A DNA stretch of 64,000 bases from a phage. The position numbers and the translations under genes are program-made. The DNA lies in NCBI GenBank assembly GCA_011939005.1, contig GCA_011939005.1_4858.1, one strand, 5' to 3'. Each line of letters starts with the position of its first letter. The first letter of the stretch is position 1. Positions 12,439 to 42,336 of this stretch are shown one piece after another. The notes under the pieces are model-generated. The model was not told the origin of the DNA. It searched no databases and saw only the letters and a program-made list of their open reading frames with translations.

Positions 12439-14484
12439 ATGACTTTTATTCCACGAAACGGCGCGCCGTTGAATAACAAGCAAGGTTGGCAGGATAACTC
12501 TGTCCCCGAGCTTGTGCGTACCCCTACGGGTGACGCAATTCATAAGCCGCTGATCTTCACCTTTGCCGCGCGCGGGGTAGACAACGAGGCGTTCCCGTTA
12601 ACCGGGGATAATGCACTGTCTCTGCTTGGTCGCAATGTCTTTGACTTGCGAGGCCCCTACGCGACGTTCAACACGCCCTATCAGGCGATGTTCAACGCTA
12701 ACGCAAACGAGTGTATGTATCAGCGCTTGATCCCTGAAGATGCGAAAACCGCAAGTGTTCGCGTATTCGCCGACGTACTCGAAACGAAAGTTCCGTCCTA
12801 CGAACGCGACAGCAACGGGATCGTTCAGTACGACAACTCGGGCAAGCCCAAGATCAAAGAACAAGTTGACGGTTTGGTAATCGTCTTCCGTTCTGTCGTA
12901 ATCGACGAAACTACCCCGGCCATCGGCGCAGGTGTGGTTATCGAGGGGACGATGACTGGCGAAGGCGGCACGAAATCGAAGCTGTATCCGTTGTTCGATA
13001 TCGCAGGCCCGTATGCGGGTGCTGACGTCAACGGTTTCGGTTTCAAACTGATCCCACTCAGCGAGAAATCCAGCCCGGCTCTGACCTCCTCCTATCAAAA
13101 TGAAGTCGGTGGTCGTGTTTACACCCTGCAATGGTTCGAAACCCTGGCAGGTGTGACTTCTCCGGTAGTGTGGAAAACTCTCACTGGCATGAGTAGCATC
13201 AATTTTAGCTTTAAGCCCGATGCATACTATCAGCCGATGAGAACGCAACTCGACTTCGAAGTTGTTGTTGCGGATGCATATCGTCAGACGATGCCTGACA
13301 TTGGCGAGCTGCCAGATTATGGTCCTTTCGAGCAGTTCTATCTGTATCGCGAGAACCTGGAAACTGTACTGGGCTTGGCTCAGGCCGCTATCACAACTGA
13401 TGCGCCTGCTGACCCGTATATGGTTGACATCTTTGGCGGCTATGATTTACTGGGCCAGCCTTACGATGGTCTTCAGGTAAACCCGGCTACTGAAACCGGT
13501 AAAGTTGTGTTCTCCGCATCCAACATCCACTACCTGCAAGGTGGTAGCGATGGTACCATGAACAACGACGTTTACGACGAACTCGTTCGCCGTGAAATGC
13601 TGCTGTTCCCGGATGGCGGTAAAGTCCGTTACGACAACGAGCTGAAATACTCGCTGGGTTGTTTCTGGGACTCTGGCTTTAGCTTCGATACTAAAGCTGC
13701 GCTCGTGAACTTCATCGGTCGTTCACGTAACACCTTCTTGACGCTGGCGACTCACGTTTACAGCCAAGGCCGTAACGATGAGCAGACAGAAGAAAGTGCA
13801 AAAATCGCCCTGATCGAATTGATCACAGCGGTACCGGAATCTGCCTATTACGGCACTCCGGCTGCACGTGGTATGGTCACCGGCCAATCGGCGTTCATCA
13901 AGAACTCTTCCTACAAGAAGCCTGTTCCGATGAACTACTCCCTGGCGAACTTCTTCTCGAAGTACCTGGGTGCAGGCGACGGTCGTGCAAAACCGGCTTA
14001 TCGTTTCAGCCGTGGCGAACTGACGATTATCGAAGATCTGACTGACCTGAGTATGCCGTGGAAAGGCAACGAAGTGTATGCGTCTGACTGGGATGTGTCG
14101 CTGATCACTGCCCGTTCCTACGACTACTATCGCTTGTTCATTCCGGCGATTCAGTCAATCTACAGCGAAGATCGTTCTGTACTGAACAACGCCCTGTTCA
14201 ACTTCATGATGACCTACGTCTATCGTGTTTCCGACCGTGTATGGGCGGACATGTCTGGCGAAGCGGCCATGACAGATGATGAACGTGCGAAGATGATTGA
14301 GAACAAAATTATCGAACGTCTGGAAGGCCGTCTCGATAACGTTGCTGTCGTCACTCCGAAGGCGTACTTCACTGCAGACGATAAATCCAATGGTTACTCT
14401 GTGACGCTGGACCTGATCGCTGAAGGCGGTGTGCTGCTCACCCAGTTCAACACCACTATCAAAGTTTACCGTCGGGAGAGCTAA
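12439..14484 (+). CDS. Major virion protein, tail sheath-like candidate (681 aa)
   Basis: Strong SD ggaga; size and pairing with a following ~32-kDa gene match the sheath/tube arrangement of phiKZ-type myophages (size analogy only). Confidence 0.4.
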   Translation: MTFIPRNGAPLNNKQGWQDNSVPELVRTPTGDAIHKPLIFTFAARGVDNEAFPLTGDNALSLLGRNVFDLRGPYATFNTPYQAMFNANANECMYQRLIPEDAKTASVRVFADVLETKVPSYERDSNGIVQYDNSGKPKIKEQVDGLVIVFRSVVIDETTPAIGAGVVIEGTMTGEGGTKSKLYPLFDIAGPYAGADVNGFGFKLIPLSEKSSPALTSSYQNEVGGRVYTLQWFETLAGVTSPVVWKTLTGMSSINFSFKPDAYYQPMRTQLDFEVVVADAYRQTMPDIGELPDYGPFEQFYLYRENLETVLGLAQAAITTDAPADPYMVDIFGGYDLLGQPYDGLQVNPATETGKVVFSASNIHYLQGGSDGTMNNDVYDELVRREMLLFPDGGKVRYDNELKYSLGCFWDSGFSFDTKAALVNFIGRSRNTFLTLATHVYSQGRNDEQTEESAKIALIELITAVPESAYYGTPAARGMVTGQSAFIKNSSYKKPVPMNYSLANFFSKYLGAGDGRAKPAYRFSRGELTIIEDLTDLSMPWKGNEVYASDWDVSLITARSYDYYRLFIPAIQSIYSEDRSVLNNALFNFMMTYVYRVSDRVWADMSGEAAMTDDERAKMIENKIIERLEGRLDNVAVVTPKAYFTADDKSNGYSVTLDLIAEGGVLLTQFNTTIKVYRRES

Positions 14485-14487: not shown

Positions 14488-15363
14488 ATGGCAATCAAAG
14501 ATCGTCTCATTTTGCCTGATCAGGGTCTGCACGTCGACGGCGGCCAGTACGATATGGTCAACGCGTTCTCCTCGGGCCAAAACGGCCCGGTTGGACAGGT
14601 TGGCAAGTTCGTTACTAACGCCTCTCGTCTGCGTCGTAACGTCATTGCGCGCGTCATGGAATTCCCTCGTTGGGTGGATTACATGCCGAACCCACAGATG
14701 TGGCGTCAGGCTATCAAGTCCTTTATCGAGGTTCACTCCGAGATTACTGGCCTGGATAAAACCCTGAGCCATGCGGCTGTTGAAACTCAGCAGGGTCGTA
14801 ACAACCGTACCCAGTATGAAGCTGGTCTGGTAACGGAAGCACTGTCCTCTGTTACCTTCACCACCCCGGATAAACTCGGGAAGGTGTACCAAAACATGCT
14901 GTGGGCGTGGCTGGTTTACGGTGTTTGTGATCCCCAGACTGGTCACCCGGGCCTGGCCGCAATCAACCCGAACGTTCCTGACCACCTGCCGGATATGTAC
15001 AGCATGACCGTGCTGTTCATCGAGCCAGATGCGTATCAGCGTAAACCGCAGAATGCGTGGTGGTTAACGAACATGATTCCGGAAACCGCTGGCCAGGATA
15101 TCGGTGAGCGTGAAACCAACACCGGTCCGCAGATTAACGAACTGTCAATCGCCTTTACCTCCCAGCAATGGACAGGTTGGGGTCCGATGCAGGCCGCTGC
15201 GAAAGAGCTGGATCGTATGAAGCTGTACGGTCTGCGTCCTTACGAACGCAAACTGTGGCTTACTCCGTCTCAGCAGACCGACGGTATCAACCCGGACGTC
15301 AACGCAACCCCAGGTGGTTACAACTCTGTCTCCGACGAGCAGATGGCCAACCAGATGCGCTAA
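14488..15363 (+). CDS. Tail tube-like candidate (291 aa)
   Basis: Strong SD gggagag, 3 nt after upstream stop, followed by strong terminator; identity by size/context only. Confidence 0.35.
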   Translation: MAIKDRLILPDQGLHVDGGQYDMVNAFSSGQNGPVGQVGKFVTNASRLRRNVIARVMEFPRWVDYMPNPQMWRQAIKSFIEVHSEITGLDKTLSHAAVETQQGRNNRTQYEAGLVTEALSSVTFTTPDKLGKVYQNMLWAWLVYGVCDPQTGHPGLAAINPNVPDHLPDMYSMTVLFIEPDAYQRKPQNAWWLTNMIPETAGQDIGERETNTGPQINELSIAFTSQQWTGWGPMQAAAKELDRMKLYGLRPYERKLWLTPSQQTDGINPDVNATPGGYNSVSDEQMANQMR

Positions 15364-15365: not shown

Positions 15366-15421
15366 CAAAAAAAAACAAGCGTTACCTCTCTCCATTTGGA
15401 GAGAGGTACGTTTTATTTTTT
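15366..15421. terminator. Bidirectional intrinsic terminator (hairpin 15380-15410) after sheath/tube-like gene pair
   Basis: 13-bp stem with one bulge, A9 run upstream and T-rich run 15411-15421 downstream. Confidence 0.75.
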
Positions 15422-16374: not shown

Positions 16375-16862
16375 TATTCGTCGTCTTCGTCTTCTTCATC
16401 AGTTGCCATCATGGACTTGGCAAACTCTTTACGCAGCTTGCCTTCCAACGCTTTAGACTTCGGAGAACCGAAACCGTAAGAGATGGACGCTGCCCATTCT
16501 TTCTGAGTTGGGTTTTCAGTAACCGGGCGAGAGAACACGGTAGAGAATGCTGCGTTACCGATATCCAGCGTTAAGTCCAGTGCACCGATATCGCTATCCG
16601 CTTTCGCACGGTCAGCAATCAGACCACCGGCAATGCCACCGAACAGTTCAGTGAAGTTTGCGTCGTGCTGTCGCAGAGCGTCCGCGTCTTCCAGTGTGAA
16701 GCGATAGTCCACATCCCCAACTTTCGTTACGGGGAGTGTTTCTTCGTAAATCTTAACCAGCGGGTCGGCGTTCAGCGCCAGGTCTTCGGACAGGGTTGCT
16801 GCCGGCGTGTCCAGTTCAGCGATCAGTTTGTGCAGTGCTTTCATTGAAGTTACTTCAGCCAT
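16374..16862 (-). CDS. Hypothetical acidic protein, 162 aa (C-terminal DEEDEDDE tail)
   Basis: ORF; acidic tail. Confidence 0.55.
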   Translation of the reverse strand: MAEVTSMKALHKLIAELDTPAATLSEDLALNADPLVKIYEETLPVTKVGDVDYRFTLEDADALRQHDANFTELFGGIAGGLIADRAKADSDIGALDLTLDIGNAAFSTVFSRPVTENPTQKEWAASISYGFGSPKSKALEGKLRKEFAKSMMATDEEDEDDE

Positions 16863-16888
16863 CTTAATATTCCTTAAGGTCAGTGTGA

Positions 16889-17560
16889 TTAATCGTGTGA
16901 AAGACGAGCTTCGAGGTCGTCGATAATGGTATCTGTGAAATAGCTAATATCTAGCTGCTCCACGAAATCCCTGCGTTCCAGAATGCGCTCTGCGAAGAGC
17001 GTACCGTACCAACTAGGGATATTACTAATACCGTTGCGTCCGAACTTCTGTTGGACGTGACCAACGGCATGGAATTTTGCATCGCCTTTACTTTTACCCT
17101 GTTCACGGGCAAACAGATAAGAACGGTGCATGTAATTGCTCACGTCATCTACAGACGGTATACCACGGTCAGCTGCGGCAACTATCTCAGAGACAATCCC
17201 GTTGTAGTTCCCTTTGTGAGAACTGCGGTGTTCTAAGACTGCATGGGCAATCGTCAAACATTCATCATCGGTAAGTTTATACTTACGTTTGAGCACTGGC
17301 TTGTTATCCAGTATCCAGCTATACCCTTTGATGTGGTGCGACGCACGGTCTTCTTTGGTAGAGAAGATATCGTGAGCTGCCACCGCAATCAGTATCAGCT
17401 TCAGGTGTTCGGTTTGCCCAAGCATATACGCGATACGAATCGCATTTGATTTAACTGAGTTGATGTGATCCATGCGATGCGCACTATCGGTATAACGATA
17501 GAAGTCGCGGAATTGACGAACCAGTTTTTCCCAAAGTTTGTTGAGTTCAGTGCCCTGCAT
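16889..17560 (-). CDS. HD-domain phosphohydrolase
   Basis: Ordered motifs H (AHRMDH), HD (AVAAHDIF), H (HHIKG), H (EHRSSHKG), D (AAADRG). Confidence 0.7.
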   Translation of the reverse strand: MQGTELNKLWEKLVRQFRDFYRYTDSAHRMDHINSVKSNAIRIAYMLGQTEHLKLILIAVAAHDIFSTKEDRASHHIKGYSWILDNKPVLKRKYKLTDDECLTIAHAVLEHRSSHKGNYNGIVSEIVAAADRGIPSVDDVSNYMHRSYLFAREQGKSKGDAKFHAVGHVQQKFGRNGISNIPSWYGTLFAERILERRDFVEQLDISYFTDTIIDDLEARLSHD

Positions 17561-17594
17561 GTAAATATTCCTTACGGTAATGGTCGATTAACTA

Positions 17595-17984
17595 CTAAGA
17601 AAATGTGTGGTAACAACGTGTCAGTGTAACCTTCACGTTATCAGAATGGTCTTCGTTGGTATACAACACCGGCCAGATAATGTTATCAGACGAAAGCGCC
17701 TTTGATAACCCTTCAATCAATTCCTTCATTGAGGTTCCCTTCAGCCGATGGGTCGTACGCCACCTGTGTGACGTCATACGGCTATAAACCACCATATCTG
17801 GTGTAAGGGTACTACTTTCCTCTTTAATCTCCTCTAAACGCTTCTCCTCGCTTTCTACGAAGCTTAGTAAAGCATCTGGATTTCGAACAAACTCACCGAA
17901 ACGATCGTCTCGGCGCAAGCCACAAAGAACCCACAGCGTGAATGGGTCTCTGCACGCATCTACTAACCCTTCTGCGATTTTCAT
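17595..17984 (-). CDS. Hypothetical protein, 129 aa
   Basis: ORF in operon context. Confidence 0.5.
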   Translation of the reverse strand: MKIAEGLVDACRDPFTLWVLCGLRRDDRFGEFVRNPDALLSFVESEEKRLEEIKEESSTLTPDMVVYSRMTSHRWRTTHRLKGTSMKELIEGLSKALSSDNIIWPVLYTNEDHSDNVKVTLTRCYHTFS

Positions 17985-18038
17985 TTTATTCCTTCCTACA
18001 CAGTCAAAGGATTTGTACGATTCGTGATTTTTGAGAGA

Positions 18039-18437
18039 TCAGATTAGCTGCTCAGCGCGCAAACGTCGCAAAGTGTTCGTTGCTGTAACCAGAACGTCCT
18101 GCAGCTCTTGCATCGCTTCACCAGTAAAGAACGCTTTAAGGTGCTGGTCGCTAGTGATGAGTCCGCCGTATTTGTACGGTAGGTCTGTAATATCACAGAC
18201 GATGGGATTTTTTGCTCGCCACGTTTCATCAGCAACAAGAATAAGAAACTTCCAGGCGTCTTGATTGCCGAGCGATTCACCGGTTTCTGGCTTGTAGAGT
18301 TCTTTTAAACGTTTATCGCGCTCGGAGATAAGGTATTCGTCATCAGTCAACAGACGAATTAAATCGGCTTCATTGCTCTCGGCTTTAGCACAAAGCATCA
18401 TGGCAACAAACGGGTCTTGGCGTAGTTGGTTAGTCAT
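18039..18437 (-). CDS. Hypothetical protein, 132 aa
   Basis: ORF with SD aaggag. Confidence 0.55.
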   Translation of the reverse strand: MTNQLRQDPFVAMMLCAKAESNEADLIRLLTDDEYLISERDKRLKELYKPETGESLGNQDAWKFLILVADETWRAKNPIVCDITDLPYKYGGLITSDQHLKAFFTGEAMQELQDVLVTATNTLRRLRAEQLI

Positions 18438-18530
18438 TGTAAATACTCCTTCTGGGTAATAGTCGATTAAAGCGTTAACGTGTAACGCTCACCTAAGTAA
18501 TATATATCTCAGTTCTTTTTGAATGCAATT

Positions 18531-18574
18531 AATAAAATAAAAAGGCTCACCCGTATCCGAAGATAGGATGAGCC
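18531..18574 (-). terminator. Intrinsic terminator (imperfect hairpin 18544-18574 with UUCG loop on minus RNA)
   Basis: Stem with internal bulge, loop cgaa on plus = UUCG on minus RNA, A-rich run 18531-18543 on plus. Confidence 0.55.
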
Positions 18575-18583
18575 TAGTGGAGC

Positions 18584-19132
18584 TTAGACTTGCAGTAGTG
18601 TCCCCGAGTGAGTAATCGGGTCATTGTAGAACGCTTCACACTGGAGGCAAATGCCATCAATGTTCGGTTCTTCAGTTCGCGACCATATTGCCGCGCCACC
18701 TTGCAAAATCCATTCTCGACAGTTACGACCATAATCGTCGACAAGCAAATTACCTCGCGAGGCGTAAGCTTTCTTCTGCCCTGAACTTTCGGTGACGATG
18801 ACTTTGTCAGCTGGCACCCCAAAGTGCTTCATGAACCATCGTTGTTTTGAATCCACAACCAATTGGTGGTCGTAGTGATCTTCTGACCCAGAGGTGAGTA
18901 TTGCCCAACTGTCGCAAAGTCTATCTACCGTTTCCAGGATTCGCTCTACACCCTCAATTGGTTCGAGTTTGTAAAACAAGTCAGGATCGTTCTGATACAT
19001 CGAACGAACCAAACTACGACGGCGGAGTTCAGGTAATGCGTTAAACTCTTTAATCGTCATTCCGGGAAAATGTGTGGATAAAACGTATTTACGCCAGCGT
19101 GCAAAAACGCCATCGCTATCCAGATAAAACAT
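18584..19132 (-). CDS. HAD-superfamily 5'(3')-deoxyribonucleotidase-like protein (start at ATG 19132)
   Basis: N-terminal MFYLDSDGV (DxDGV motif I) and LLVDDYGRN (motif IV DD); SD aagga before ATG 19132; ORF-track start 19177 lacks SD. Confidence 0.55.
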   Translation of the reverse strand: MFYLDSDGVFARWRKYVLSTHFPGMTIKEFNALPELRRRSLVRSMYQNDPDLFYKLEPIEGVERILETVDRLCDSWAILTSGSEDHYDHQLVVDSKQRWFMKHFGVPADKVIVTESSGQKKAYASRGNLLVDDYGRNCREWILQGGAAIWSRTEEPNIDGICLQCEAFYNDPITHSGTLLQV

Positions 19133-19185
19133 CTTCTTGTCCTTATTTTGTTCCCCAACACATGAAACCAACGTCATGTAAAAAA

Positions 19186-19485
19186 TTACATCTGCTTTAT
19201 TGCCATATTCGAACGATACGGCTCAGTGAGTAGAAAGTAAGTACGGCGATAGTCGATTGTCACTCCAGCCTCTTTAATGTCGCAATAGAGTGCCATGATA
19301 TCTAGCGACGCGATTCCGGAGATGATGTTATTAATCTTGCGTTTTGTATCAAAACGTTCCGATAAGATTTCGGCAAGCACTTCTTTACCAGCCTTTCCTT
19401 GGATAGCGTAGATCGCTAACGCTTTCAGTTCTTCCGGCGTCAAACAACGAAGGGTCGGAGGTATTGCGATGTTAACGACCTTCAT
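19186..19485 (-). CDS. Hypothetical protein (about 100 aa; ATG 19485 preferred over GTG 19530)
   Basis: SD aggggg before ATG 19485. Confidence 0.45.
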   Translation of the reverse strand: MKVVNIAIPPTLRCLTPEELKALAIYAIQGKAGKEVLAEILSERFDTKRKINNIISGIASLDIMALYCDIKEAGVTIDYRRTYFLLTEPYRSNMAIKQM

Positions 19486-19540
19486 GCGTCCCCCTACTGT
19501 AGTGGTTTTTAGTTGTGATTTGCAGACCACGAACTAGGCA

Positions 19541-20170
19541 CTACGGTGAAACGACGTATTCGTTCAGTGCGTTATCAAAAGCAGTACGCGCAGTGGCGAC
19601 CGCCTCCGAGACCTTAACTTCACTGCGCTCCCAGTTGACGCTGATAATCAGTCGATAAAATTCGCCGGCTTTCAGCAGTTGACTGGTAGACAGGCGTACA
19701 TCTTGTCCGAAACTTAAGTGATAGACAAAAACATGGCCGCCGTTGCGAAGTTCTGACAACCGCATCTCGCCCAGGTAAATCGGTTTGATATCCCAGTTCG
19801 ACATGCGGTGTGGTACAATCCATACTTCACCCGCCCGATTCGGTTCCTGTGTCAGGTTGACCGAAGGCTGCGCTACATCACGTTCATCAAAACCGTAAAG
19901 ATACAATCGTGTGGGTATTTCGATTGCAGAGAAGTTGTGACGTGCACCCTTAATCGCTCGCTCTAAATCTACCGAGCAGCAAATCCTGGGCACGGTCTTG
20001 TCTTCATCTGGCGCGCACGAAAGTGGGATACGCGGCGAAAACGTCGGTATCTTACACTTGCTTAAATGCAGCGGCTGTTCAGTCAGTTTACGCAACGTCA
20101 ACTTTTTGGCGACGTGCGGCATCTGGCGTTCACACCACCGCTCTAATGACGGGTCGACATGTTCTGCCAT
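19541..20170 (-). CDS. Hypothetical protein, 209 aa
   Basis: ORF in operon context. Confidence 0.55.
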   Translation of the reverse strand: MAEHVDPSLERWCERQMPHVAKKLTLRKLTEQPLHLSKCKIPTFSPRIPLSCAPDEDKTVPRICCSVDLERAIKGARHNFSAIEIPTRLYLYGFDERDVAQPSVNLTQEPNRAGEVWIVPHRMSNWDIKPIYLGEMRLSELRNGGHVFVYHLSFGQDVRLSTSQLLKAGEFYRLIISVNWERSEVKVSEAVATARTAFDNALNEYVVSP

Positions 20171-20172: not shown

Positions 20173-20976
20173 TTACCAGCTCCTTACACCCATGCCCATT
20201 ACCCGCAGATTGGACACTTTCGGAGCCAGCTGCAGGTATTCCTGCGCGAGTTGCTGGAGAGCACCACGACGGGACTCAGTGGCAACAGCGCTGGTCGTTG
20301 TCGGATTGTACAGAATGTCTTCCAACACTTGACGACTGATAGGGCGGTCGACGTAAGTGCGAGTAGATTCCTGTGCCACTTTACTACCGCGTTGAATCGC
20401 AGAGTATTTGTTACAGATTTGCAGGCCATCTTCAATAACCCAGTCAAAGGTGACCAGTTTATCGATGCGGCGTACGATAGTCGTACCCAGACGACCTTCA
20501 CGAACGATAGCACGCAGTGAGAAACACACGTTCTGATGTGGGTTCTCTAGTGCTTCCGCTAGAAGCGGACCACGTTCACGGTTAGGTTTAATCCAACCCC
20601 AGATTTCCATTACCGGCAGACCGTTACACATCTGGTCGGTCGGCTTCACTTCTACTTCGCGGATGTGCATACACACGTTACGCGTTTCGATCCATTCGTT
20701 ACGTTCGATCCACTGGGCTTCGCTCATGCCTTGTTCGTATTGCGGATGGTCTTCTTCACCGAAGAGATTCCCCGCCAAAACTTTACGCATGAAAACGTTA
20801 GAGCGCTCGAAGACATGTTTTGACTCGTTATAGGCGTAGTAAATATTCTCAGAGTTGAAAATATTCAGTGCACCTAACAGGACGTAGTAATATCCGTCCG
20901 CATCTTTCTTTAGCGTTGCCCCTTTATTGACCCCAGCGAGTGCCACGCAGTTATAACGTAGTGACAAGTTTTCCAT
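20173..20976 (-). CDS. Hypothetical protein, 267 aa (position consistent with a prohead-protease slot in phiKZ-like gene order; not supported by motifs)
   Basis: ORF; synteny inference only. Confidence 0.5.
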   Translation of the reverse strand: MENLSLRYNCVALAGVNKGATLKKDADGYYYVLLGALNIFNSENIYYAYNESKHVFERSNVFMRKVLAGNLFGEEDHPQYEQGMSEAQWIERNEWIETRNVCMHIREVEVKPTDQMCNGLPVMEIWGWIKPNRERGPLLAEALENPHQNVCFSLRAIVREGRLGTTIVRRIDKLVTFDWVIEDGLQICNKYSAIQRGSKVAQESTRTYVDRPISRQVLEDILYNPTTTSAVATESRRGALQQLAQEYLQLAPKVSNLRVMGMGVRSW

Positions 20977-21038: not shown

Positions 21039-21767
21039 TTACCTCATATACAAATCCTCGAGTGGCTCTGCACGTACCGGATCGACCTGGAGTGCAGAAC
21101 GGATACCCTGTTTCAGTTCCACATCTGCAATCTTGGCCAACCGGGAAGTTTTGTTCAATGAACCTGAACGCAGCGGAATAAACTGCACCCGATTCATCAA
21201 ATCGCTGTCTTTTTTCAGGGTGTAGCGGAAATACGTCCGCGGGTCGCCAACCTTACGCTGTGTGTGGGCAGCATAACAGTCAGCGGTGATCTGGTCGTTA
21301 AAGACCGTAAAGCCGTTCCACGTCTTAGTGTCAGACAATAGCTCAGCGTCATCTACTGCGGTGTACCAGAAAGGCCGGTTTCCGAAGTCGTAGATGTACG
21401 AAGCGATGTTGTAGACTGGCGAGGAGAGCACTTGCAGCATTCGGTTGGGGAACACCACCGTGCCGGGGTCAAAACGGAACTCGTAATACGGCACACCCTG
21501 AACGTCAATTTCCTCAAACGCCGACGGGGTAATTTCAATGAACGTCGTGACGTTCGATACCCCGTAGGTTTTGCGGTCAGTGGAGATAGCGAAAATACCG
21601 ACGATTTCGACTTGCGAAGAAATTACCGCCAGCTCTTTAGCCACGAAGCCAACAGGGATGTAAATGTAACATCCCCCTTTGGTGATGGTGGCCGTGCCTT
21701 GGTCCACTAAATCTGCATGAATTTTCGTCGCGTCACGACGTGCTGTTTCAATGGCGCTCACGACCAC
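21039..21767 (-). CDS. Hypothetical protein, 242 aa
   Basis: ORF in operon context. Confidence 0.55.
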   Translation of the reverse strand: MVVSAIETARRDATKIHADLVDQGTATITKGGCYIYIPVGFVAKELAVISSQVEIVGIFAISTDRKTYGVSNVTTFIEITPSAFEEIDVQGVPYYEFRFDPGTVVFPNRMLQVLSSPVYNIASYIYDFGNRPFWYTAVDDAELLSDTKTWNGFTVFNDQITADCYAAHTQRKVGDPRTYFRYTLKKDSDLMNRVQFIPLRSGSLNKTSRLAKIADVELKQGIRSALQVDPVRAEPLEDLYMR

Positions 21768-27813: not shown

Positions 27814-29427
27814 TCATTTCAACAGCGCAGCAGTCGTTCTTTTAATCACGTTGTTAACCGGATTGATTTTGAAACTGCCGTCTGTTGCAAACCAGTAGTT
27901 TTTCGAACTGACCCACTTCCGATTTTCCTCGAGCGCTTCGGTTGACATCGGGCAGTTTGCTGAGCCGGTGTCACCATCGTAGTCACCACCCAATCCACCT
28001 AATCGGGATGGATGTGGTGCCATGGATTCCACAAAGGTTTTCACGGTACGGTCAGGGAAACTAATTGCACCCTTCTCTTTTAACGTGACCCAATCGTCTT
28101 CCAGTTCATGCAAATAGAGGGAAGAAGTGGTGGTCTCCAATCTTATGGTCGAGGAGTAAGTCGAACCGCGTCCCGTAACCGGATAACGCGTGATGAACGA
28201 GAAGTAGTCATTCCAAATATCGTAACCTGACAAATAGAGGAGTTCTGCTAAGCTCAGTCCGCGGACAAGCTTACGGTCACGTCCTTCCGGCAGGTCTTCA
28301 ATATCGTAAAAGATTTTGAAGCTGCGTTTGTCTTGGTAGATTAATGCCACGTAATGGTCCGGATCAATCATCAGCGGTTTATGTCGAAGCTCGCGCGCTT
28401 CCATTCTGTTGATGAGTGTTTCGATGCCATCGTCGGTAGTGAAAAGGTCATACACCCGCCCGGAGACTTCCAGGAACTCACGCTTGAGTGTTTTGGTGTT
28501 AACGCCGTATAAGTTGCCGTCCCCTGCCCGGATGTTACTGAGGTAACGTTCACGGATGTGGTATTGCGCCACAGGCAGTAATGCCTTCAGGGTTTGGTAC
28601 AAACCGATACGGGTATCCGTTGGACGAATCGCATCTTCGCGACCCATGACCTTGGAACCGGTTGAGAATGAAGACAGCACGTTACGCGTACCGTTCATTA
28701 ATTTACGTGACGTCACTTTACGACGTGCAAAACCACCTTTACCGTCTTGGATGTTGAAGAAGTACATCCAGATGTCATTAAAGGTTTGTTGGAGCTTCCA
28801 GCGAACCGGGTCAGTCAGTTCCGTTCGCGTACTGCGGTCGGGGATTGCACGTGCCAGAGAAATCAGACGGCGGTAGAGTCCGCCAATCTCTTCTTCTTGG
28901 TCGCGGCCATCCTGACGAATGACCAAATCACGTAATCCTGCAGGCAGAACCAGCACATAGCGGCTGAGACTGACCGGACGGAACTTATTGAAGAAATCGA
29001 CTGTCTCGTCGCGACGCATCGACTCGTTGCGTCCCGGAGTCAGTTGTTCGTAGTAGCGTAGGAAGAAGTTGAAGCCGGTGTCTGCACCTTTATCACTGGG
29101 CAGAGCCGGCTCGAAATCTTTTTCTTTCTCATTCCAGATAGCGAATCGCTTCCCGGAACAGATTTCTTCGTACAGCTGTTTCAGCTGGAACAGTGCCAAA
29201 CAAACGGTCGGCGAAATGATATCCAGTTTGATATCAATGTACGAGAACGTTGAGTCTCGTGCCTCGCTCCCTGTGAGGCCAAATATTTCGGTTGAATACA
29301 GTCCTTCAGGGTGAAAGTTTTTCGTCAGTCCCTGAAAGGTGTCTGTTGTTGTAACTGGTTTTAAATGCGACACCAGGGACTTGTTGACGTTTAACAAGTA
29401 AAAGTCAACCCAGTTTAGCTTTCTCAC
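27814..29427 (-). CDS. Multisubunit RNA polymerase beta-prime-like subunit, N-terminal fragment (537 aa), GTG start
   Basis: RYVLVLPAGLRDLV vs RpoC ILTVLPVLPPDLRPLV; GGFARRKVTSRKLMNGTRNVLSSFSTGSKV vs [21 protein letters not shown]; catalytic-site variant GGDYDGD (nt 27969-27986) vs NADFDGD; ORF ends about 55 aa after it; SD aggag before GTG. Confidence 0.8.
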   Translation of the reverse strand: MRKLNWVDFYLLNVNKSLVSHLKPVTTTDTFQGLTKNFHPEGLYSTEIFGLTGSEARDSTFSYIDIKLDIISPTVCLALFQLKQLYEEICSGKRFAIWNEKEKDFEPALPSDKGADTGFNFFLRYYEQLTPGRNESMRRDETVDFFNKFRPVSLSRYVLVLPAGLRDLVIRQDGRDQEEEIGGLYRRLISLARAIPDRSTRTELTDPVRWKLQQTFNDIWMYFFNIQDGKGGFARRKVTSRKLMNGTRNVLSSFSTGSKVMGREDAIRPTDTRIGLYQTLKALLPVAQYHIRERYLSNIRAGDGNLYGVNTKTLKREFLEVSGRVYDLFTTDDGIETLINRMEARELRHKPLMIDPDHYVALIYQDKRSFKIFYDIEDLPEGRDRKLVRGLSLAELLYLSGYDIWNDYFSFITRYPVTGRGSTYSSTIRLETTTSSLYLHELEDDWVTLKEKGAISFPDRTVKTFVESMAPHPSRLGGLGGDYDGDTGSANCPMSTEALEENRKWVSSKNYWFATDGSFKINPVNNVIKRTTAALLK

Positions 29428-29456
29428 TTTTAAGCTCCTGAATTGGAAGAAACATT

Positions 29457-32400
29457 ATGGCAAAAAGAGGCAAAGACGGTTTCGATGATATCGATTTAGA
29501 TAGACTCGACGACTGGGATGATTTCGGTGAACCACCCCGTCCCAAAGACGAGAAAAAACGAAGCCCGATACTCAGTACCCTGAATGTTGCCAGGAAGTCG
29601 GCGTTGTCAACTATCTGGCCAGAAGGGAAACGCGACCAAGTTATCCTCAAGGGGATGCCTAAGCCGGCAGCTGATGCATACGAGGGTTATCAGTCAGCGG
29701 CAGCTGCAGCAAAGGACATTTACGCCCATACGAAAGGGGAGCTTGAGAAGACCGAGCGCACGCTGAAGATGCAAGCGCGCCAACTCGGTCCGACGATGAA
29801 GAAATACTTGCCGGATGCAGTTACTAAGCGCTTCGACAAGTGGTCAAAATCTGACCAGTTAGATTACCAGAACTACGATCCGAATCAGGCATTGATGGAT
29901 CGTGAACTGGGCGACGTATTCTCAGGTGTGCCAAAGGACGCCGACGAACAACGTCAGCTGCAGGACCGCATGGTAGAGGATAAGCTCCGCGACAGCATCA
30001 AAGAGATGCGCGCGGATGCAATGCACCAAACCATGATTGGAATGGCGAAGGACATTAACCTGTTAACCGGGTTAAGCCGTGGGGTATTCTTAAACATCGA
30101 GCGTAAGAAACTCGAATTGCAATACCGTACCCTGTTCGCCATTCAAGACATCGTGAAGATGAAGCAGTCGGAGTTCGATCGTAACACGCCTGCTTTAGAA
30201 GCCATCGTGAAGAACACGGCGCTGCCAGACTACGCGAAGGAAGATTTCTCAGAAGTCCGTTGGGCAAACGTTAAACGCCAGGCTGCGGAATGGATGAACC
30301 CATTGCGTTATGCTGACGGGTTTATGGACATGATTCGCGAAAATACCAAGAAGAAAATTTCTGGTATATTTGGCGAAGGTCGTGGTTTGTTAGAGTCTGT
30401 TCTCGGCATGGGTGTTGAAGACGATTTCGGCATGAGCGATAGCTCTTCGTTGACTGCCGAACGTCGCAAAACAAATGCTCGAGATAAAGCAACTGCATGG
30501 GGTAGCGGATTCCTTGCGAAGAAACTACTCGGCCCACAAATCGAGAAACTCCAGAAATGGACTCGTGAGGAGATGGAGAAAAATCCAGAGGTCATGAAAC
30601 GCCTGCAGAAGGGCGCGTTCACCTTTGGTAATCTTTCCTCTATCTCGAACTCAGCTATCGCAGGCGAAACGCAAGGACCGTTGGCGGATTTGTTCCGGGT
30701 ATTGAATGAACTCGGTATTGTCCAACCGTTAAACCGTGAGAAAGCCTTCCTTGACGAACGTAATGGCGAAACGTTAAGCCGTTCGGCGAAATTTGACCGT
30801 AAAGCATATCTTAGCCTGGTTGAAGTTATTCCTGCCTGGCTGGCAGAGATTAACAAATCTGTTCGTCGGGGTTATGGCGAACATGCCGACCTGGAATACG
30901 ACATCACTAGTCGTGGGTTCGTAGACCGTAAAGTGGTCGGTAACCGCGTACGCAAGGCGGTTGCAAACGATGAACAACGCCTGCGTCTCCAAAATTCCAT
31001 TAACAGCACTGTGGATTTTGTTGACCGCGGCAAAACGCTCTCGCAGAAGGATCGACAGCATCTCGCCGACTATATCGAGTCGCGAGCCTCGCAGGGCCGC
31101 GCATTCGACGTAGAAGCGATTCTGAAAGACCCGATGCATCTTCATCGGTATATGCCAGGAAACGCCGCAGAACGCATTAAGGAAGCGTTACAGGGGCATT
31201 CTGATAGCTTGGTCGGCGGTAGCAACGAATTAAGTAACGAGCTGGCCCGCAAAATCTCCACAGTGCAGTCATCTATCACCCAACGTCAGGCAATTATCGA
31301 CGAGGCGGTGAATATTTACGGTGAGCGAGCATTGCGCGATGCGGGTATCTTTAACTACGACGCGAAGAGTGACACTTTCGGCGTGGATAAAGACCTGTCC
31401 GATCCCTATACCTTGTTTAATGACTTGGCGATGGGCAAGACACGCAGCGGGCGTGCATTGACTCGTGACCAGGAGATTCAACGTAAGCTGCAAAATGGTT
31501 CGGCGTTAGGCGACTATCTGCGCCGAATGAACCAAGGGGCAAGTGGTGGTGCCGATGACACGTCGTTGCCGCCGGCTTTACGTGGCGGTGGTAAAGGCCG
31601 CGGAATGTCGCCTCGGCAGTTAGCCGCAGTTCTCTACGGTGAAACCTCGACTAACTTTGTTGAATTGTTGAGTCAACGTAACCGTGGCGAAGAAGCACCA
31701 CGGAATAACTTTGACGGTATCATCGAAGCGATTCGGGGTAATAACAACAGTGACACCCTCCAGAAAATTCTGGAACACGTCAGAAGTATGGACGAAGAAG
31801 GGGTTCTCCTGGCTTCGTTAGCAGGGGGTGCTGGTTCTGGTGACGAAGAGATGGGACCACCTCGTCCTGGTGGTGGTAGCGGTGGCGGTAAACGCCGCCG
31901 TATTATCATCGGTGAGGATGGGCTTATTCGTCGTTGGGGCGGTGTGTTGTTCGACACTGCAGCAGGAATCGGTGGCTTTGCAAAACGTGGTGTTAAAGGT
32001 GCCTGGAATAAACTGAATCAGTTCGGTGGCTGGGCGCGCGGTAAAATCGCGGGGATGGGCGGCGGAGAAGGTCCTGGTTTCTTAACCCGGATGCGTGGCC
32101 TTATCAGCGGTAGTGTCCGTGGGGGCTTTGAAGCGGTAAGCTCTTTCGGTAAAGGATTGCTGGGTATCCGCGACGTTTACGATGACCACGGTAATGTTGT
32201 ACTGCAAGGTGCACGTCTGGAAGCTGGAGAATACTATCAGGTCATTGATGGTAAAATGGTTCAGCTGAAAACGCTGGACGACATCAAACTGGGGAGTGAT
32301 ATTGTTGACTCCGCAGGTAATCTGGTATTAGCAGCCGCTGACTTAGCCGCTGCGGGTAAACTCCGCTACTATAAAGGCGGGAAAATCCAAGCACTGACCC

Positions 32401-35400
32401 AAGGTCTGGCCAGTAAGATTGGCTTAGGCTTTAATAAGGTGGCTAAGCTACCGAAACGGTTCCTGGATTTCCTGTCACCGAAAGCGGGCAGCATCGTTGG
32501 TAAGATTAAGGACTGGCTGAACGAGATTCCGGAAGGCGAAGAAAAGACACGTCTCCAGAAAGCGTTCAACCGCGTAACGAGCTTACCGGGTAAAGTGCTC
32601 GGTTTTGCGAAACGTGGTGTCGACCGTCTGAAAGACATGATTACCGACAACCCACTGACGCGTTGGTGGAAAGGCCGTAAAGATGGTGGGGGTGGTGGTT
32701 TCAGTCTCTTCTCATCAACCGGCAAGAAAACCAACCACATCCTTATCCGTATCTATAAACTGTTGAACCAACGTTTACCGGGCGATCCGGAAGACGAAAG
32801 TTGGACAGAAGAAATGGAGAAGGGTGTCGGTGGCGGTGGTAGTACGATCGGCCGTGCAGTTCGCGGGGCGTATAATCGTGCGAAATCGTCGTTGTCTGAA
32901 CGTTTTGGTGGACGTTGGTCAAGAACAAAAGCGTTCTTTGGTCGTGGACGTGACCGCCTGCGTGGTTGGTTCAGTGGTTTCCGAGGCCGGGCTGGGGATA
33001 TGCTCGATGGATATCGTGGAGCACGACACGACATTGCTACACGTTACGAAGTTGAACGTCGGTTGGCTGGACGCGATGACGATGTTGCTGAGTTTTATCG
33101 CAGCCATTTGAACGCGAAAGGTGGTCTTTCTGGCCGTAAAGTCTACGGTGACGCGAAGGACGACCTTGAGACCGCGCGCGATGCAGCAGGTCGGGTTATC
33201 AACAAAGGGAAGAATGCTGCCAAGTCTGCAGGTGCAAGGTTATTCGAACGCTTGGACCGAATGATCGGCTTGCAAGAGATGTCATGGTTTAACACCATGC
33301 GCGAATCAGTATCCCGTGCAGGTGGTGACGATGGCATTATTCGTACCATGTTTGCGAAGTTCGGTAAACGTAACAAGCCACCTGAAAGTGATGAAAAACG
33401 CGACTACCTTAACTTCTTCAAACGTTGGCGTGAGAAACGTAAGGAGAAGAAAGAGAAAGCGCAGGGCTCCAAAGGGAAATCTGGCGGTCTGTGGGATATG
33501 GTGAAAGGCTTACCTATCATCGGTCCCATCGTCAGTATCTTGGGAACTGTGGGTAATATACTCGGTTCTATCACGAAATGGGGTGTGTTAAAACCAGTAG
33601 GTCTTTTAGGTAAGGCTGCGTGGAATGTCGGTAAGTTCGCAGTAACCCGTTTGGCGGCACCCGCGGTGTCCGCTGTGGCAACTGCGGCATCTGCCGTCGT
33701 GACAGCAGTGGGCTGGCCGGCAATTCTTATCGGTGGTGCGATCGCCGCGGCTGGTTACGCCGCGTACAGGATTGCAACGACTACCTATACCCAGTACCTG
33801 GATAAGATGCGTTTAGCTCAGTACGGTTTCCGTGATTACGATAAGTGGTCGTCGGACGACGGGGCGAAAGCGCGTTACTTAGAAGACGCATTGCGTGAGT
33901 ATGTGTCTTACGCGGAAGATGGCCAAGCCAGTCTCCGTGGGCTAAGTGGAAAAGACGTTCAGAAGTTAGCTGAAGGGTTCGGTATTAACGTTGAGGAAAA
34001 AGGCGAGATGTTGGCCTTCCAAGCGTTTATGCTTCAGCGCTTTATTCCGATTTATCTCCGCTGGATTACGGCACTGAAGTCAATGCCGAACAGTATCCAG
34101 TTGGCTGACGTCGGCGATGCGAAGAAAGTATCGAAAGAGGACATGCTGACTCTCTTCAACAAAATGAAGATGACTAAGGATGCAAAAGCGTTCTCTTCGT
34201 TAACAGACCCACGCAAAGTCAACCAAGGTTTCTTCTCGAAAGCTTGGGACGTTGTAACCTTTACACCGAAGGAGTTCTTGAGCGGTGAAGAGGTTATGGA
34301 AGTGCAGAATGAAGTCGAGCGTGCAATCAAGTCCAGAATGGACGATAAGAAAGCACGTAAGTACGGAATGGCACCGGCCGTGGAGGGGATTAAGTCCGCG
34401 GGCGTTGATGAAGCTATCAACAAACTTGGACAGTTGGATAACGAACGTAATAAAAATCTGGCGAAGGTAGAAGGTTGGGAAGACGGAACAGAGCAGGTTC
34501 AGATTCAGGTAGACTGGAATGCGGTGCTCGACCAGAAAGACATGAATGCGATGGAATCGGTGCGTTGGAAGACTTACGGCTTTACCACCATCGATAACGC
34601 CACCCGCACTTTGATCACGGTATTCGAGAAGAACGTCATCAAAGACATTGACGTGAAAACCGCAAGCTACAAAGGAGATTGGAAGAAAGCCATCGCCACG
34701 ATGGTTCCAGACGCTATCGGTACACCGAAAGAAGATCGTTTGAAACGGTGGTTCTTTGACCGTTTCTTACCGGTATTCATGACGTATTTGGTTGGGGTGA
34801 AGCGTTACCTGCCAACAGCCGATCCGCTGAACTTGAAACTGACCGGCGGCTACCTGTACGAAATCAGTCTGATGATGTCAACTGCCTACAGCCTGAAAGG
34901 TGGTATAAGACAGTCGGTGTGGGAAGTGAATATCAACCCATTAGGGGGTGAGGCTAACACGAACCCATCATCCATCAAAGCCGAACTGGAAACGCTGAAG
35001 CTGCTGTCAAAAGAAGCTGACCTTGCCGTGCGTAACATGATTAAAGCCATTAGAAATAATGGCAAGCGTGCGCGCTGGAAGGATCGTAACAAGAACCGCA
35101 GTTCTCTGGAAGTTACCGGTGAGGATGAAGAAGACTCGAACATCAGTTCGGGAGATTCTTTGTCATCTGACGGTGCTCGCGCCTCAGGCTACATTCCATC
35201 GGGTACGAGTGGTGGTGTGCCGGGTAACTTGGGTCAAGTCGTCGATGCGGTTGGTGGTGTGCGGAACTACGCTGCAATGACCACTGGTTCGTCTTCGATT
35301 AACCTGAGTGATGTGAAAGACGGTGATTATAAGTCACTGGCTGAAAAATACCCGATAGAAATGTTGGGTAGAAAGGGTGCGTTGAACGTTCCGAATATCA

Positions 35401-36578: not shown

Positions 36579-36626
36579 TCGTAGGGGGTGGCAACACCCC
36601 CTAATCATCTTACAGAGAGGTTTTAC

Positions 36627-38849
36627 GTGGAAGCAAGACAACTAAAAGATTCAGGATGGGTAACCGGCCTGTTTGGCGGTACAACCGCACAGCGCGATGA
36701 GCGCTTCCTGGGTTTGCGTCGTTACTCTAACGCGATGCTCTCGTTTGAAGATACCACGATGGGTGGTTCGCAAGCGTTAAATGCGCCGCCGCAGTTTACG
36801 ATGTTTGCTGATCCGAGTTCAACAGGTGCTTTTGCACAACCTGATGCAGGTCGTGGCTCGTACTCAAAGTACGTTAAAGGTCAAGACCAACGTGGTTCCT
36901 ATCGTTTAGGGACTTTCTATTACGAAGCTATTAACCAAAACAGTTTTTATCTTCATTGTCGTTTCGGTAAACCTCGATATATCGGGGTAGCTGCATTCTT
37001 CGCGAATATGTACGATTCCAACCTAGCGTATCTGGCACGCACAGGTGACTACCCAGGTATGTTACGTGCGATGGGGACGTATGTTGCCGCCGCAGCAATA
37101 TGGGCCGCAGTAGGTACGGTTGCCTTTGCGGTTATTCTAATTACACCACGTATGTTGAAGATGGTGCTGAACAAGCAGACTTCTCGCTACTACTACGTGA
37201 AACCGACAATGCACTTGTATCTGCGCGCTGTGCAGAATATGGTCAACACCCAGTTAGTTTATCGCCGATTGGTACCAACGGGTGTGTTAGGGACTTTCCA
37301 GCTTGCTAATGCTGTAGATGGGTCTGAGAAAGGCGGTACTGCTAATAAGTACAACGGCGACCGTAAAGAGTGGTACTCCATGCTGCCAGAAATCTGGACA
37401 GCTGATGGTGAGTTCGATATCTATCGAATGATTAACCGCTACCAAACATTAGCCAACTACCAGGCGAAAACCATCGATAAAATTCGTAAAGAGTCGAGTA
37501 ACGAAGAGGACATGGCTCGTCGTTTGCGAAACTTCTATCTGGAAGCGACGTACTCAACAACCCATTTGGAGAAAGCTGCGCAGTACGAGGTTTCTTTACG
37601 TAACCTTGAACATGTAGCCAAAGCTGGTAAAGGGTACGATGCTGGTTTTGAAAACGTCGACAACAAAGAAGACGAACTGGTAGCAGGGATGAACGGCAGC
37701 ATTCAGGATGCTCAGTCACAAGGGGGTAAGGCTGAAAACTTCGAAAACGAAGGTGATGCGCAACGTAAAGAGCTTGCCGAGCGTATGGCACAGGTTGAAA
37801 AGAACCAGGCACAGGTTGCTAAAAGTCAGACCGAAGCAAACTCAATGGATGAGAATAATCTCGACATTGGGAAGATTGAAAACTGGATGGACCAAGGCCA
37901 GAAAGAATCTGTCGGTAGCGTCTTCAAAGACTATATCGATATTTTAGAAGGCGCTATGGATGGGTTAACTTCGAACATCGCTTCGGAGATACGCAATGGT
38001 TCGCAGTGGATTACTTGGCGTGTTGATGGACGTGATACCGTAGGGCGTTCGTTCTCCAACACCACCAAAGAACCTGAAATCTCTGGCACGGTTAACTCCG
38101 CCACACAGAAAGCACGTTCTTTGGAAGTAAACCTCTCTGGTGGTAAGACTGGTTTCGACGCAGTCGATGGTCTCATTACTGGGTTGAAGTCCGCCTTTAC
38201 AGGCGCACTCGATTTCTTACATTTATCAGGGATTATGTCACTGTACAACTCGTCGGTGATTGACTTCCCGGAAGTGTGGGACTCCTCAGACACCTCAGGT
38301 GACGATATCTCGCTAAGTATTCCCCTTCGCTGTTGGTCGGGTAATGACTTAGATGTGTTTCAGGATCTGATTGTCCCGTTGTCGTTCTGGTTAGCGGCAG
38401 TTTGTCCGTTAGCAACCGGTAAACAATCGTTTACACACCCGTTCTATCTGGAGTGCTATTCTCGCGGTCGTTATTCCATGCGTAATGCCATGGTAACTAA
38501 CTTGAGTCTCCAGTTTGGTACAGGTGGGTTAGGGTGGCGTGCTGACGGTCTGCCGTTGTCGTGTGATATACAGGTAACTATTCGTGACCTGTCACGCGTT
38601 ATGTACATGCCGATTGTAACCGATATTGGTGTGTTTGATGATGATAACAAGTTCAGTGAATTTATGTCTGTGTTGGGTGCTGCCACGCTTTACGAGCGTA
38701 CCAACGGTATCGCGCAGGCTAAAATCAACGCGTCTATCTGGGCGCAGAACTGGGCAAGTGCCTGGTCACAGGGCAGCATCGTCAACGCCGCATTAGATAT
38801 CATACCGGCACGACAAATCGCGAACATTTTCCTACCACAAGCGCGATAG
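36627..38849 (+). CDS. Hypothetical protein (about 740 aa), probable structural; GTG start at 36627 preferred over 36588
   Basis: SD agagagg 6 nt before GTG 36627; the listed start at 36588 is a GTG inside a hairpin right after the upstream stop. Confidence 0.6.
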   Translation: MEARQLKDSGWVTGLFGGTTAQRDERFLGLRRYSNAMLSFEDTTMGGSQALNAPPQFTMFADPSSTGAFAQPDAGRGSYSKYVKGQDQRGSYRLGTFYYEAINQNSFYLHCRFGKPRYIGVAAFFANMYDSNLAYLARTGDYPGMLRAMGTYVAAAAIWAAVGTVAFAVILITPRMLKMVLNKQTSRYYYVKPTMHLYLRAVQNMVNTQLVYRRLVPTGVLGTFQLANAVDGSEKGGTANKYNGDRKEWYSMLPEIWTADGEFDIYRMINRYQTLANYQAKTIDKIRKESSNEEDMARRLRNFYLEATYSTTHLEKAAQYEVSLRNLEHVAKAGKGYDAGFENVDNKEDELVAGMNGSIQDAQSQGGKAENFENEGDAQRKELAERMAQVEKNQAQVAKSQTEANSMDENNLDIGKIENWMDQGQKESVGSVFKDYIDILEGAMDGLTSNIASEIRNGSQWITWRVDGRDTVGRSFSNTTKEPEISGTVNSATQKARSLEVNLSGGKTGFDAVDGLITGLKSAFTGALDFLHLSGIMSLYNSSVIDFPEVWDSSDTSGDDISLSIPLRCWSGNDLDVFQDLIVPLSFWLAAVCPLATGKQSFTHPFYLECYSRGRYSMRNAMVTNLSLQFGTGGLGWRADGLPLSCDIQVTIRDLSRVMYMPIVTDIGVFDDDNKFSEFMSVLGAATLYERTNGIAQAKINASIWAQNWASAWSQGSIVNAALDIIPARQIANIFLPQAR

Positions 38850-40813: not shown

Positions 40814-40825
40814 TTTGATAGCTCC

Positions 40826-40866: not shown

Positions 40867-40875
40867 ATACGTATT

Positions 40876-42335: not shown

Positions 42336-42336
42336 C

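Follow-up and report, generated by a model that had tools for sequence, protein, structure and literature searches.

Why should a giant phage encode two nucleotide-hydrolysing enzymes among the genes for its virion and its RNA polymerase? The question is raised by a 64,000-nt stretch of phage DNA (NCBI GenBank assembly GCA_011939005.1, contig GCA_011939005.1_4858.1; hereafter the window, meaning the whole stretch analysed), in which the interval 16889-19132 carries genes for an HD-superfamily phosphohydrolase and a HAD phosphatase resembling 5'-nucleotidases. A reading of the sequence alone had proposed that these enzymes degrade host or signalling nucleotides, e.g. cyclic-nucleotide defence signals or (p)ppGpp, or shape the deoxynucleoside triphosphate (dNTP) pool. 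Comparison with related phages and with published proteomes gives a different answer for each gene. The HAD gene lies among structural genes because its product is a detected head protein, gp248 of Salmonella phage SPN3US, and the HD gene holds its place through old synteny. Judging from their motifs, the interval most likely encodes two nucleotide phosphohydrolases that are independent of each other and catalytically intact, their genes being separated by a boundary between transcription units. We put at somewhat above even (roughly 0.55) the probability that both remodel (deoxy)nucleotide pools, the HAD enzyme being delivered in the capsid.

On its DNA identity the window is assigned to Seoulvirus, the SPN3US-like giant Salmonella phages. 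Its region 16500-19600 is 96-99% identical to that of ~30 SPN3US-like jumbo phages of Salmonella, Escherichia, and Proteus (98.0% for SPN3US itself), and its gene order agrees with SPN3US gp240-gp260. Both enzyme genes exist as predicted and are intact, at 16889-17560 (HD) and 18584-19132 (HAD), on the minus strand like every other gene of the interval; family, fold, and motif evidence bears them out. The sequence-only reading was thus right about the two enzyme classes and their location. It left unmentioned the two small open reading frames (ORFs) between the enzyme genes, and missed the head location of gp248, the conserved synteny of the HD gene, and a terminator-like hairpin that separates the two genes.

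A nucleotidase-like protein in the phage head

The HAD protein is 100% identical to SPN3US gp248, and its computed mass of 21.04 kDa agrees with the 21.0 kDa listed for that protein. According to Thomas et al. 2016 (Table S4), gp248 was recovered at 18, 13, 14, and 10 spectra from four SPN3US preparations purified on caesium chloride (CsCl), among them tailless heads (am27 sup-) and particles from which the virion RNA polymerase (vRNAP) was missing (am11 sup-). A subsequent study, with triplicate samples, classed gp248 as 'Head', with ~39 spectra from wild-type and ~42 from head-only particles at a sequence coverage of ~58%, and listed it as having an intact N-terminus, uncleaved by the prohead protease, and no predicted function (Scheuch et al. 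2023, Table S6). The same mass spectrometry settles the start of the gene: the reading frame could be extended to 19177, but the intact N-terminus with Phe at position 2 (MFYLDSDG...) places the start at 19132. Spectra per kDa, scaled to the 12-copy portal (Table S4), yield a crude estimate of ~5-10 gp248 copies per head, which is similar to the spectral-count estimate for the vRNAP subunits. The HD protein, gp251, is in none of the virion tables of either study, and gp249, encoded between the two enzymes, was found only in trace and classed 'Non-virion' (Scheuch et al. 2023).

The gene for gp248 is one of a run, gp243-gp248, whose members gp243, gp244 (the vRNAP beta'C subunit), gp245 (the protease), and gp246 are likewise head proteins. 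The head location of gp248 is itself already published; what is new is that this head protein without an assigned function is an intact NT5C-type nucleotidase by family and motif. No precedent for a virion-packaged deoxyribonucleotidase or other nucleotidase was found in the searchable literature, and a paper on the Chimalliviridae core genome, with its supplements, mentions neither enzyme under the names searched.

The assignment to NT5C draws on sequence, structure, and conservation. The protein scores 33.9 bits against Pfam NT5C (PF06941), above the gathering score of 24.8; several of its relatives carry a precomputed PF06941; and it matches both phrog_420 (unknown function) and phrog_2643 ('5'-3' deoxyribonucleotidase'). 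Used as a single query, it matches among PDB sequences only mammalian 5'(3')-deoxyribonucleotidases (E ~0.01); a narrow profile of the family recovered no deoxyribonucleotidase there, just two chance-level matches. An AlphaFold (AF2) model built on 15 relatives reaches a predicted local distance difference test (pLDDT) score of 95.2, and the first two PDB structures in its Foldseek ranking are 2i7d, the human cytosolic deoxyribonucleotidase, and 3bwv, a deoxyribonucleotidase-like protein (probability 1.0, template modelling (TM) score 0.49-0.63). In the model, strand 2-4 directly precedes HAD motif I, D5-S-D7-G-V9. This motif, together with motifs II-IV (T80, K120, and D132-D133), is invariant in the 15 relatives and across six lineages down to ~42% identity, namely Seoulvirus (the window), Derbicusvirus (Phobos), Wellingtonvirus, Machinavirus, and two metagenomic contigs. 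The aromatic residues W13 and F53 are also kept in all six lineages, and Y54 only in the closer set of 15 relatives. These three residues align with a region that we take to be the one stacking on the base in the cytosolic and mitochondrial deoxyribonucleotidases (cdN/mdN). Protein length is always ~182 residues across the six lineages, and at high similarity the family profile is limited to jumbo phages. By these features gp248 is an NT5C enzyme whose catalytic residues are all in place; sequence does not reveal what it acts on. NT5C is a family of deoxynucleoside monophosphate (dNMP) phosphatases, and at the family level this tells against the signalling-nucleotide role suggested earlier for the HAD enzyme.

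A phosphatase carried in a head need not act on free nucleotides. It might instead be a polynucleotide-end, protein, or sugar phosphatase working inside the capsid or on the ends of the injected genome, or a structural passenger whose fold is kept for binding. The HAD phosphatase superfamily acts on many substrates; gp248 is a stoichiometrically minor, uncleaved head component to which no function has been assigned; and some distant relatives are labelled 'DNA repair exonuclease/endonuclease' in GenBank. These labels find no domain support here, however, and the best sequence and fold matches are specifically to deoxyribonucleotidases. The retention of the cap aromatics (W13 and F53 in six lineages, Y54 in the closer set) also speaks for a nucleotide substrate, and the invariance of all catalytic residues over ~42-100% identity argues against a purely structural role. 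A function away from free nucleotides is accordingly rated quite improbable.

A variant of the protein is on record. The SPN3US amber mutant am50, which is viable, bears a passenger missense mutation, R39H, in gp248 (record position 222769, codon 39; supplement of Thomas et al. 2016). As close relatives share R39 and the most distant lineages do not, the viability of this mutant says little about whether gp248 is essential.

An HD hydrolase of the YedJ/YpgQ clade

The HD protein taken alone has no Pfam match at E <= 0.1 and no match among PDB sequences, and alignments were needed to place it. It scores 23.9 bits (E = 2.5e-05) against the NCBIfam YedJ equivalog PRK10119, whose cutoff is 286 bits, and on this score is a relative, not an orthologue, of Escherichia coli YedJ. 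It falls in phrog_3921 at 8.5e-90, as do all ten of the family members sampled (picked mainly for unusual length). The family is large: an exhaustive profile search retrieved representatives of 1088 clusters (50% identity) at E <= 1e-3, of which 643 reached E <= 1e-10, and tblastn found it in at least 168 phage records, mostly jumbo phages of Erwinia, Salmonella, Aeromonas, Vibrio, Klebsiella, Pseudomonas, and Serratia. Pfam HD (PF01966) is matched by 51 of 147 family members (best 4.8e-09), though not by the window protein itself, and one close relative has a precomputed PF01966. Against solved structures, a profile of the 147 sequences matched 2pq7 (5.5e-13), YedJ (3gw7; 1e-11), the YpgQ homologues 3b57 (4.2e-05) and 3djb (1.4e-04), and Bacillus subtilis YpgQ (5dqv; 2.5e-03), and by these profile matches the protein belongs to the YedJ/YpgQ clade of HD hydrolases.

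The H...HD...D metal-binding residues of the superfamily are present on an all-alpha fold. Within the family H63, D64, H75, H111, and D131 are invariant, and D25, H28, H32, R72, R112, S114, G133, R146, H168, and K172 nearly so. The six-residue H..HD..H..H..D metal site is of a kind that, in the HD superfamily, goes with two-metal centres and would suggest a phosphodiesterase or pyrophosphatase, as these centres often belong to such enzymes, and the many conserved basic residues would fit a polyphosphate-bearing substrate. In the paper on PenF, an HD-domain nucleoside 5'-monophosphatase, YpgQ is described as a metal-dependent nucleotide pyrophosphohydrolase, and both it and YedJ serve there for structural comparison.

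Gene fusions and neighbours add a metabolic setting. One relative (P0114) carries a MazG nucleotide pyrophosphohydrolase domain at its N-terminus. The thymidylate synthase gene thyA follows the HD gene at a distance of 2 nt in Vibrio phage Aphrodite1, where a NUDIX gene is also close by, and in Erwinia phage RAY the HD gene lies ~5 kb from thyA. A 780-residue metagenomic protein (P0213) combines in one ORF the phrog_3921 HD domain and a ThyX split by a Hint/LAGLIDADG intein, and is a candidate fusion (or a case of adjacent in-frame genes). Taken together, the MazG fusion, the candidate ThyX fusion, and the proximity to thyA suggest a part in deoxynucleotide, thymidylate, and house-cleaning metabolism, not in signalling. 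Seven further members (P0097, P0101, P0109, P0120, P0130, P0132, and P0202) have N-terminal extensions of ~90-120 residues without a Pfam match; those of P0109 and P0132 are obviously related, and only the extension of P0114 is recognisable.

The same protein is where a role in counter-defence has to be weighed. Under that explanation, one or both enzymes would destroy nucleotides of host immune or stress signalling (cyclic nucleotides, whether mono-, di-, or oligomeric; (p)ppGpp; or toxic nucleotide analogues that defence systems produce), possibly by a division of labour in which the HD enzyme opens the diester or pyrophosphate bond and the capsid-delivered HAD enzyme, from the outset of infection, strips the remaining 5'- or 3'-phosphate. 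Some weight comes from the two-metal-type motif, from a fold similar to that of cyclic-nucleotide phosphodiesterases, and from what Iyer et al. predicted in general for the HD enzymes of jumbo phages. Support from family or context was not found, and PADLOC models gave no match. The protein lacks the HHExxDGxGYP signature and its closest fold is not HD-GYP; neither by sequence nor by structure is it closest to the alarmone hydrolase HD domains of RelA, SpoT, or Mesh1; and no domain match or signature of PDEase_I was found, fold likeness alone being judged insufficient. Both proteins could be placed in families (NT5C and the YedJ/YpgQ clade), neither of which is a signalling-nucleotide family. 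A signalling role thus gains no positive support from the assignment and survives mainly for the HD enzyme; we consider it unlikely in its general form, and the proposed division of labour equally so.

The new element here is the description of phrog_3921 as a group of YedJ/YpgQ-clade enzymes with thymidylate and MazG links. The family has no characterised member, and the links to thymidylate synthase and MazG that recur in it recommend it for biochemical study.

A probable boundary between the two genes

The order protease, gp246, gp247, HAD gene, zero to two small genes, HD gene, further small genes, tail tube, and tail sheath is kept in the six lineages, in which the HD proteins of the two metagenomic contigs are ~38% identical. 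The HD gene also adjoins the tail tube and sheath genes in Klebsiella phage N1M2 and Edwardsiella phage pEt-SU, where the HAD gene is absent. Adjacency of HD, tube, and sheath is therefore retained in distant jumbo phages without the HAD gene, and the position of the HD gene reflects old synteny and offers no clue to function.

Directly after the HAD stop codon, a hairpin at 18531-18575 folds at -21.6 kcal/mol (z-score = -4.5; 0 of 200 shuffled sequences as stable). The hairpin is bulged, and was missed by the terminator scan, spotted by eye, and confirmed by folding. Five of five other lineages have an equivalent GC-rich hairpin and T-run after the HAD gene. It is a putative terminator that would close the head-gene run gp243-gp248 and leave the HD gene in the next unit.

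What follows the hairpin varies. The slot between the HAD and HD genes (17561-18583 in the window, minus strand) is empty in Phobos, Wellington, and the locus L014, holds one small gene in pEa_SNUABM_6, two of unrelated sizes in L013, and the gp249 and gp250 homologues in the window. The hairpin and T-run always stand before it, and in most cases a TATATRTTAY-like motif comes after it, together with an AATCGACYA leader element. TATATRTTAY has three exact matches in the window (0.16 expected), and related motifs recur at the corresponding position of four other lineages (Phobos, Wellington, pEa_SNUABM_6, and L014). From its position downstream of the terminator and before the next set of genes, we infer a promoter function for TATATATTAC; a sigma-70 promoter scan performed no better than on shuffled sequence.

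A second short element marks the slot. The 16-mer TTAATCGACYATTACC has two exact matches in the window (17576-17591, i.e. TTAATCGACCATTACC in the HD gene leader, and 18455-18470, both minus strand; 0.71 expected at up to 3 mismatches), and a third copy with 2 mismatches lies at 55972-55987. The first two copies, near-identical to each other, precede the HD gene and the gp249 homologue, in each case ~15-17 nt ahead of the start codon. The pair may be a leader that was duplicated when the two small genes were inserted, or alternatively may represent a shared regulatory or translation element.

Neither small gene product has a Pfam, NCBIfam, or PADLOC match (the gp250 homologue has phrog_23206 only). 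The gp249 homologue is missing at this position in Phobos, Wellington, and L014 and, from this distribution, is a lineage-specific insert between the HAD and HD genes; the gp250 homologue is found only in SPN3US-like loci. Comparison of the two (E = 0.026) weakly suggests paralogy. The conserved terminator and insertion-slot architecture is described here for the first time.

With a conserved terminator-like hairpin between them, and with one product in the virion and the other not, the two genes form no obvious operon pair. This bears on a further explanation, a serial pathway from (d)NTP through (d)NMP to nucleoside that would exclude one canonical nucleotide and resemble the dTMP phosphohydrolase and dUTP-sparing enzymes of the uracil-DNA phage PBS2/AR9, with a possible link to DNA modification. 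Conservation of the HAD-HD neighbourhood in six lineages would suit such a pathway, as would the annotated HAD 5'(3')-deoxyribonucleotidase gene that stands under an early promoter in AR9, a uracil-DNA phage and distant relative. Set against these are the normal thymidylate synthase of the phage, the conserved terminator between the genes, the packaging of only one of the two proteins, the presence of the HD gene without the HAD gene in many phages, and the lack of detectable closeness between the AR9 protein (g151) and the HAD protein. In addition, SPN3US is not known to have a DNA modification. A serial pathway of this kind seems very doubtful.

Proposed roles in infection

Under the preferred reading, remodelling of (deoxy)nucleotide pools by both enzymes, the HAD enzyme would be a phosphomonoesterase that forms a phospho-enzyme intermediate at Asp5, with Asp7 as acid/base, and dephosphorylates (deoxy)nucleoside monophosphates. 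Built uncleaved into the head, it would enter the cell with the DNA and other ejected head proteins, and would be active from time zero, before any phage gene expression. SPN3US heads are described as carrying many proteins that are ejected into the cell (PMC7411985, PMC10052503). By a back-of-envelope calculation, a few enzyme molecules, each with a turnover of tens of substrates per second, could work through pools of 10^4-10^5 molecules within minutes. The HD enzyme would be made inside the infected cell and would cleave a phosphoanhydride or phosphodiester bond of (deoxy)nucleotides, e.g. (d)NTP to (d)NMP and pyrophosphate in the manner of YpgQ, in connection with thymidylate and house-cleaning metabolism.

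Several points weigh against this reading. The activity of both proteins is predicted from family, and we infer from the same kind of evidence their substrates and any cooperation between them. The nearest solved relatives of the HD protein, 2pq7 and YedJ, are themselves uncharacterised, and YpgQ is reached by the family profile only at E = 2.5e-3. The gp248 copy number comes from crude spectral counts, and the protein could stay in the capsid rather than enter the cell. What a phage that encodes thymidylate synthase would gain from dephosphorylating dNMPs is not obvious, and the conserved terminator weakens any coupled two-step pathway.

The enzyme classes are ordinary, and the noteworthy part is a capsid-borne nucleotidase. 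If gp248 is active and enters the cell, manipulation of nucleotide pools by nucleus-forming jumbo phages would start at DNA injection, purified virions should carry dNMP phosphatase activity, and one of ~50 SPN3US head proteins, most of them without any function, would acquire one. A bolder version is improbable: that gp248 is the first nucleotide-metabolising enzyme carried in a phage capsid and injected with the genome, that in or near the early infection compartment, ahead of all phage gene expression, it clears dNMPs or finishes the destruction of immune signals begun by the HD enzyme, and that phrog_3921 is an unrecognised class of phosphodiesterases or pyrophosphatases for such nucleotides. 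Should both proteins be ordinary pool-shaping enzymes, the outcome is a useful annotation, not a discovery.

Genomic surroundings

The sequence-only reading had set the two genes among virion and RNA polymerase genes, away from thymidylate synthase, and annotation of the flanks agrees (Table 1). The tail sheath and tail tube genes lie on one side, on the plus strand and convergent with the minus-strand block that holds the HD gene; the genes for the prohead protease, vRNAP beta'C, and vRNAP beta subunits lie on the other. The gp244 homologue takes its name from the assignment of gp244 as vRNAP beta'C (Thomas et al. 2016), and the Peptidase_S80 match of the protease (1e-84) marks a phiKZ-like jumbo phage.

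Table 1. Features in and around the interval 16889-19132 (positions in the window, except for the last row, which refers to loci of relatives)
Feature	Position	Strand	Identification
HD-superfamily metal-dependent phosphohydrolase, 223 residues	16889-17560	-	SPN3US gp251 homologue; phrog_3921; non-virion
16-mer TTAATCGACCATTACC, HD gene leader	17576-17591	-	Repeat search in the window
Small ORF, 129 residues	17595-17984	-	SPN3US gp250 homologue; phrog_23206
Small ORF, 132 residues	18039-18437	-	SPN3US gp249 homologue; phrog_27024 (unknown function)
TATATATTAC, putative promoter-like motif	18497-18506	-	Motif count
Terminator-like hairpin and U-run	18531-18575	-	RNA folding
HAD phosphatase, NT5C family, 182 residues, 21.04 kDa	18584-19132	-	Equals SPN3US gp248
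Prohead protease	20173-20976	-	SPN3US gp245 homologue; Pfam Peptidase_S80 1e-84; head maturation protease in SPN3US annotation
vRNAP beta'C subunit	21039-21767	-	SPN3US gp244 homologue; position in SPN3US annotation
Tail sheath	12439-14484	+	SPN3US annotation
Tail tube	14488-15363	+	SPN3US annotation
HAD-HD junction in relatives	L002 4920-4979; L011 2867-3000; L012 2698-3000; L013 4658-6000; L014 5893-6000		

The thymidylate synthase gene (43134-44171; Pfam 4e-112) lies ~24 kb off. An ORF at 39872-40813 (minus strand) has a homologue in Salmonella phage SPFM22 labelled 'putative mazG nucleotide pyrophosphohydrolase'; this label is unconfirmed, the ORF having no Pfam match at E <= 0.001, and the same holds for the eight further ORFs that were tested from 39475 to 49553. 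With no Pfam support among the nearby ORFs tested, the 'thymidylate synthase cluster' of the earlier reading comes down here to thyA.

Database records bear on both enzymes in other ways. Some already carry suitable labels, 'putative HD domain protein' for SPN3US gp251 and 'NT5C' in one record. In LR535903-LR535911 (SPFM5, 6, 7, 8, 9, and 12) the region is matched only as many short pieces and the HD and HAD proteins are broken, which suggests low-quality sequence, not real gene decay.

Two further features of the window deserve mention. At 15383-15408, where the tail tube gene and the gp254 homologue converge, a hairpin formed by a perfect 11-bp palindrome has T-runs on either strand and looks like a bidirectional terminator. 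The stretch 28001-38000 has a strongly positive GC skew (up to +0.19) between minus-strand blocks of negative skew. It coincides with plus-strand genes at 29457-36578 and 36588-38849, the first of which encodes a 2373-residue protein annotated as a tail fiber protein in SPN3US and SPFM22.

Comparison with known systems

For the HD protein the natural reference is the YpgQ/YedJ/2pq7 clade, from which it differs in identity (16-21%) and in the EHRxS and AADRG(I)P motifs and ~70-residue C-terminal extension peculiar to the phage family. An HD domain has been reported fused to the AR9 virion RNA polymerase; no HD-family match was found in 100 kb of AR9, the other 150 kb not being covered. T5 Dmp, a deoxynucleoside 5'-monophosphatase, was considered as a homologue of the HD protein and rejected (no Pfam match; hhalign probability 0.1).

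AR9/PBS1, a jumbo relative with virion and non-virion RNA polymerases, encodes near its polymerase genes an annotated HAD 5'(3')-deoxyribonucleotidase, g151, which is a candidate for the classic PBS2 dTMP phosphohydrolase. It differs from gp248 in having an annotated early promoter and in not being annotated as a virion protein, and AR9 DNA contains uracil. As a close relative of the HAD protein, g151 was rejected for want of similarity detectable with the profiles used.

The cellular counterparts of gp248 are cdN/mdN (human and mouse; 2i7d, 2jao) and the bacterial 3bwv. All share a HAD Rossmannoid core with a small helical cap, the DxDGV nucleophile motif, the T/S, K, and DD motifs, and a similar length (182 vs ~195 residues). 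Identity is 22-24% and the TM score ~0.5-0.6, and the window protein is viral and built into a capsid.

In function, the closest parallel may be T5 Dmp, a pre-early protein that turns dNMPs from the host into nucleosides and reshapes the dNTP pools; the phage can do without it but is more virulent with it. A capsid-delivered HAD enzyme would probably be a functional analogue of it. T5 Dmp differs in that it is made from first-step-transfer DNA instead of being carried in the virion, and its homology was compared with the HD protein only.

In its mode of delivery, finally, gp248 resembles other capsid-packaged enzymes, such as the phiKZ-like vRNAP, the T4 ADP-ribosyltransferase Alt, and polyvalent injected proteins, as a head-borne enzyme that is presumably injected and would act before phage expression. 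The vRNAP subunits of SPN3US itself are head proteins of similar spectral abundance, from which gp248 is set apart by an incorporation independent both of the vRNAP and of propeptide cleavage.

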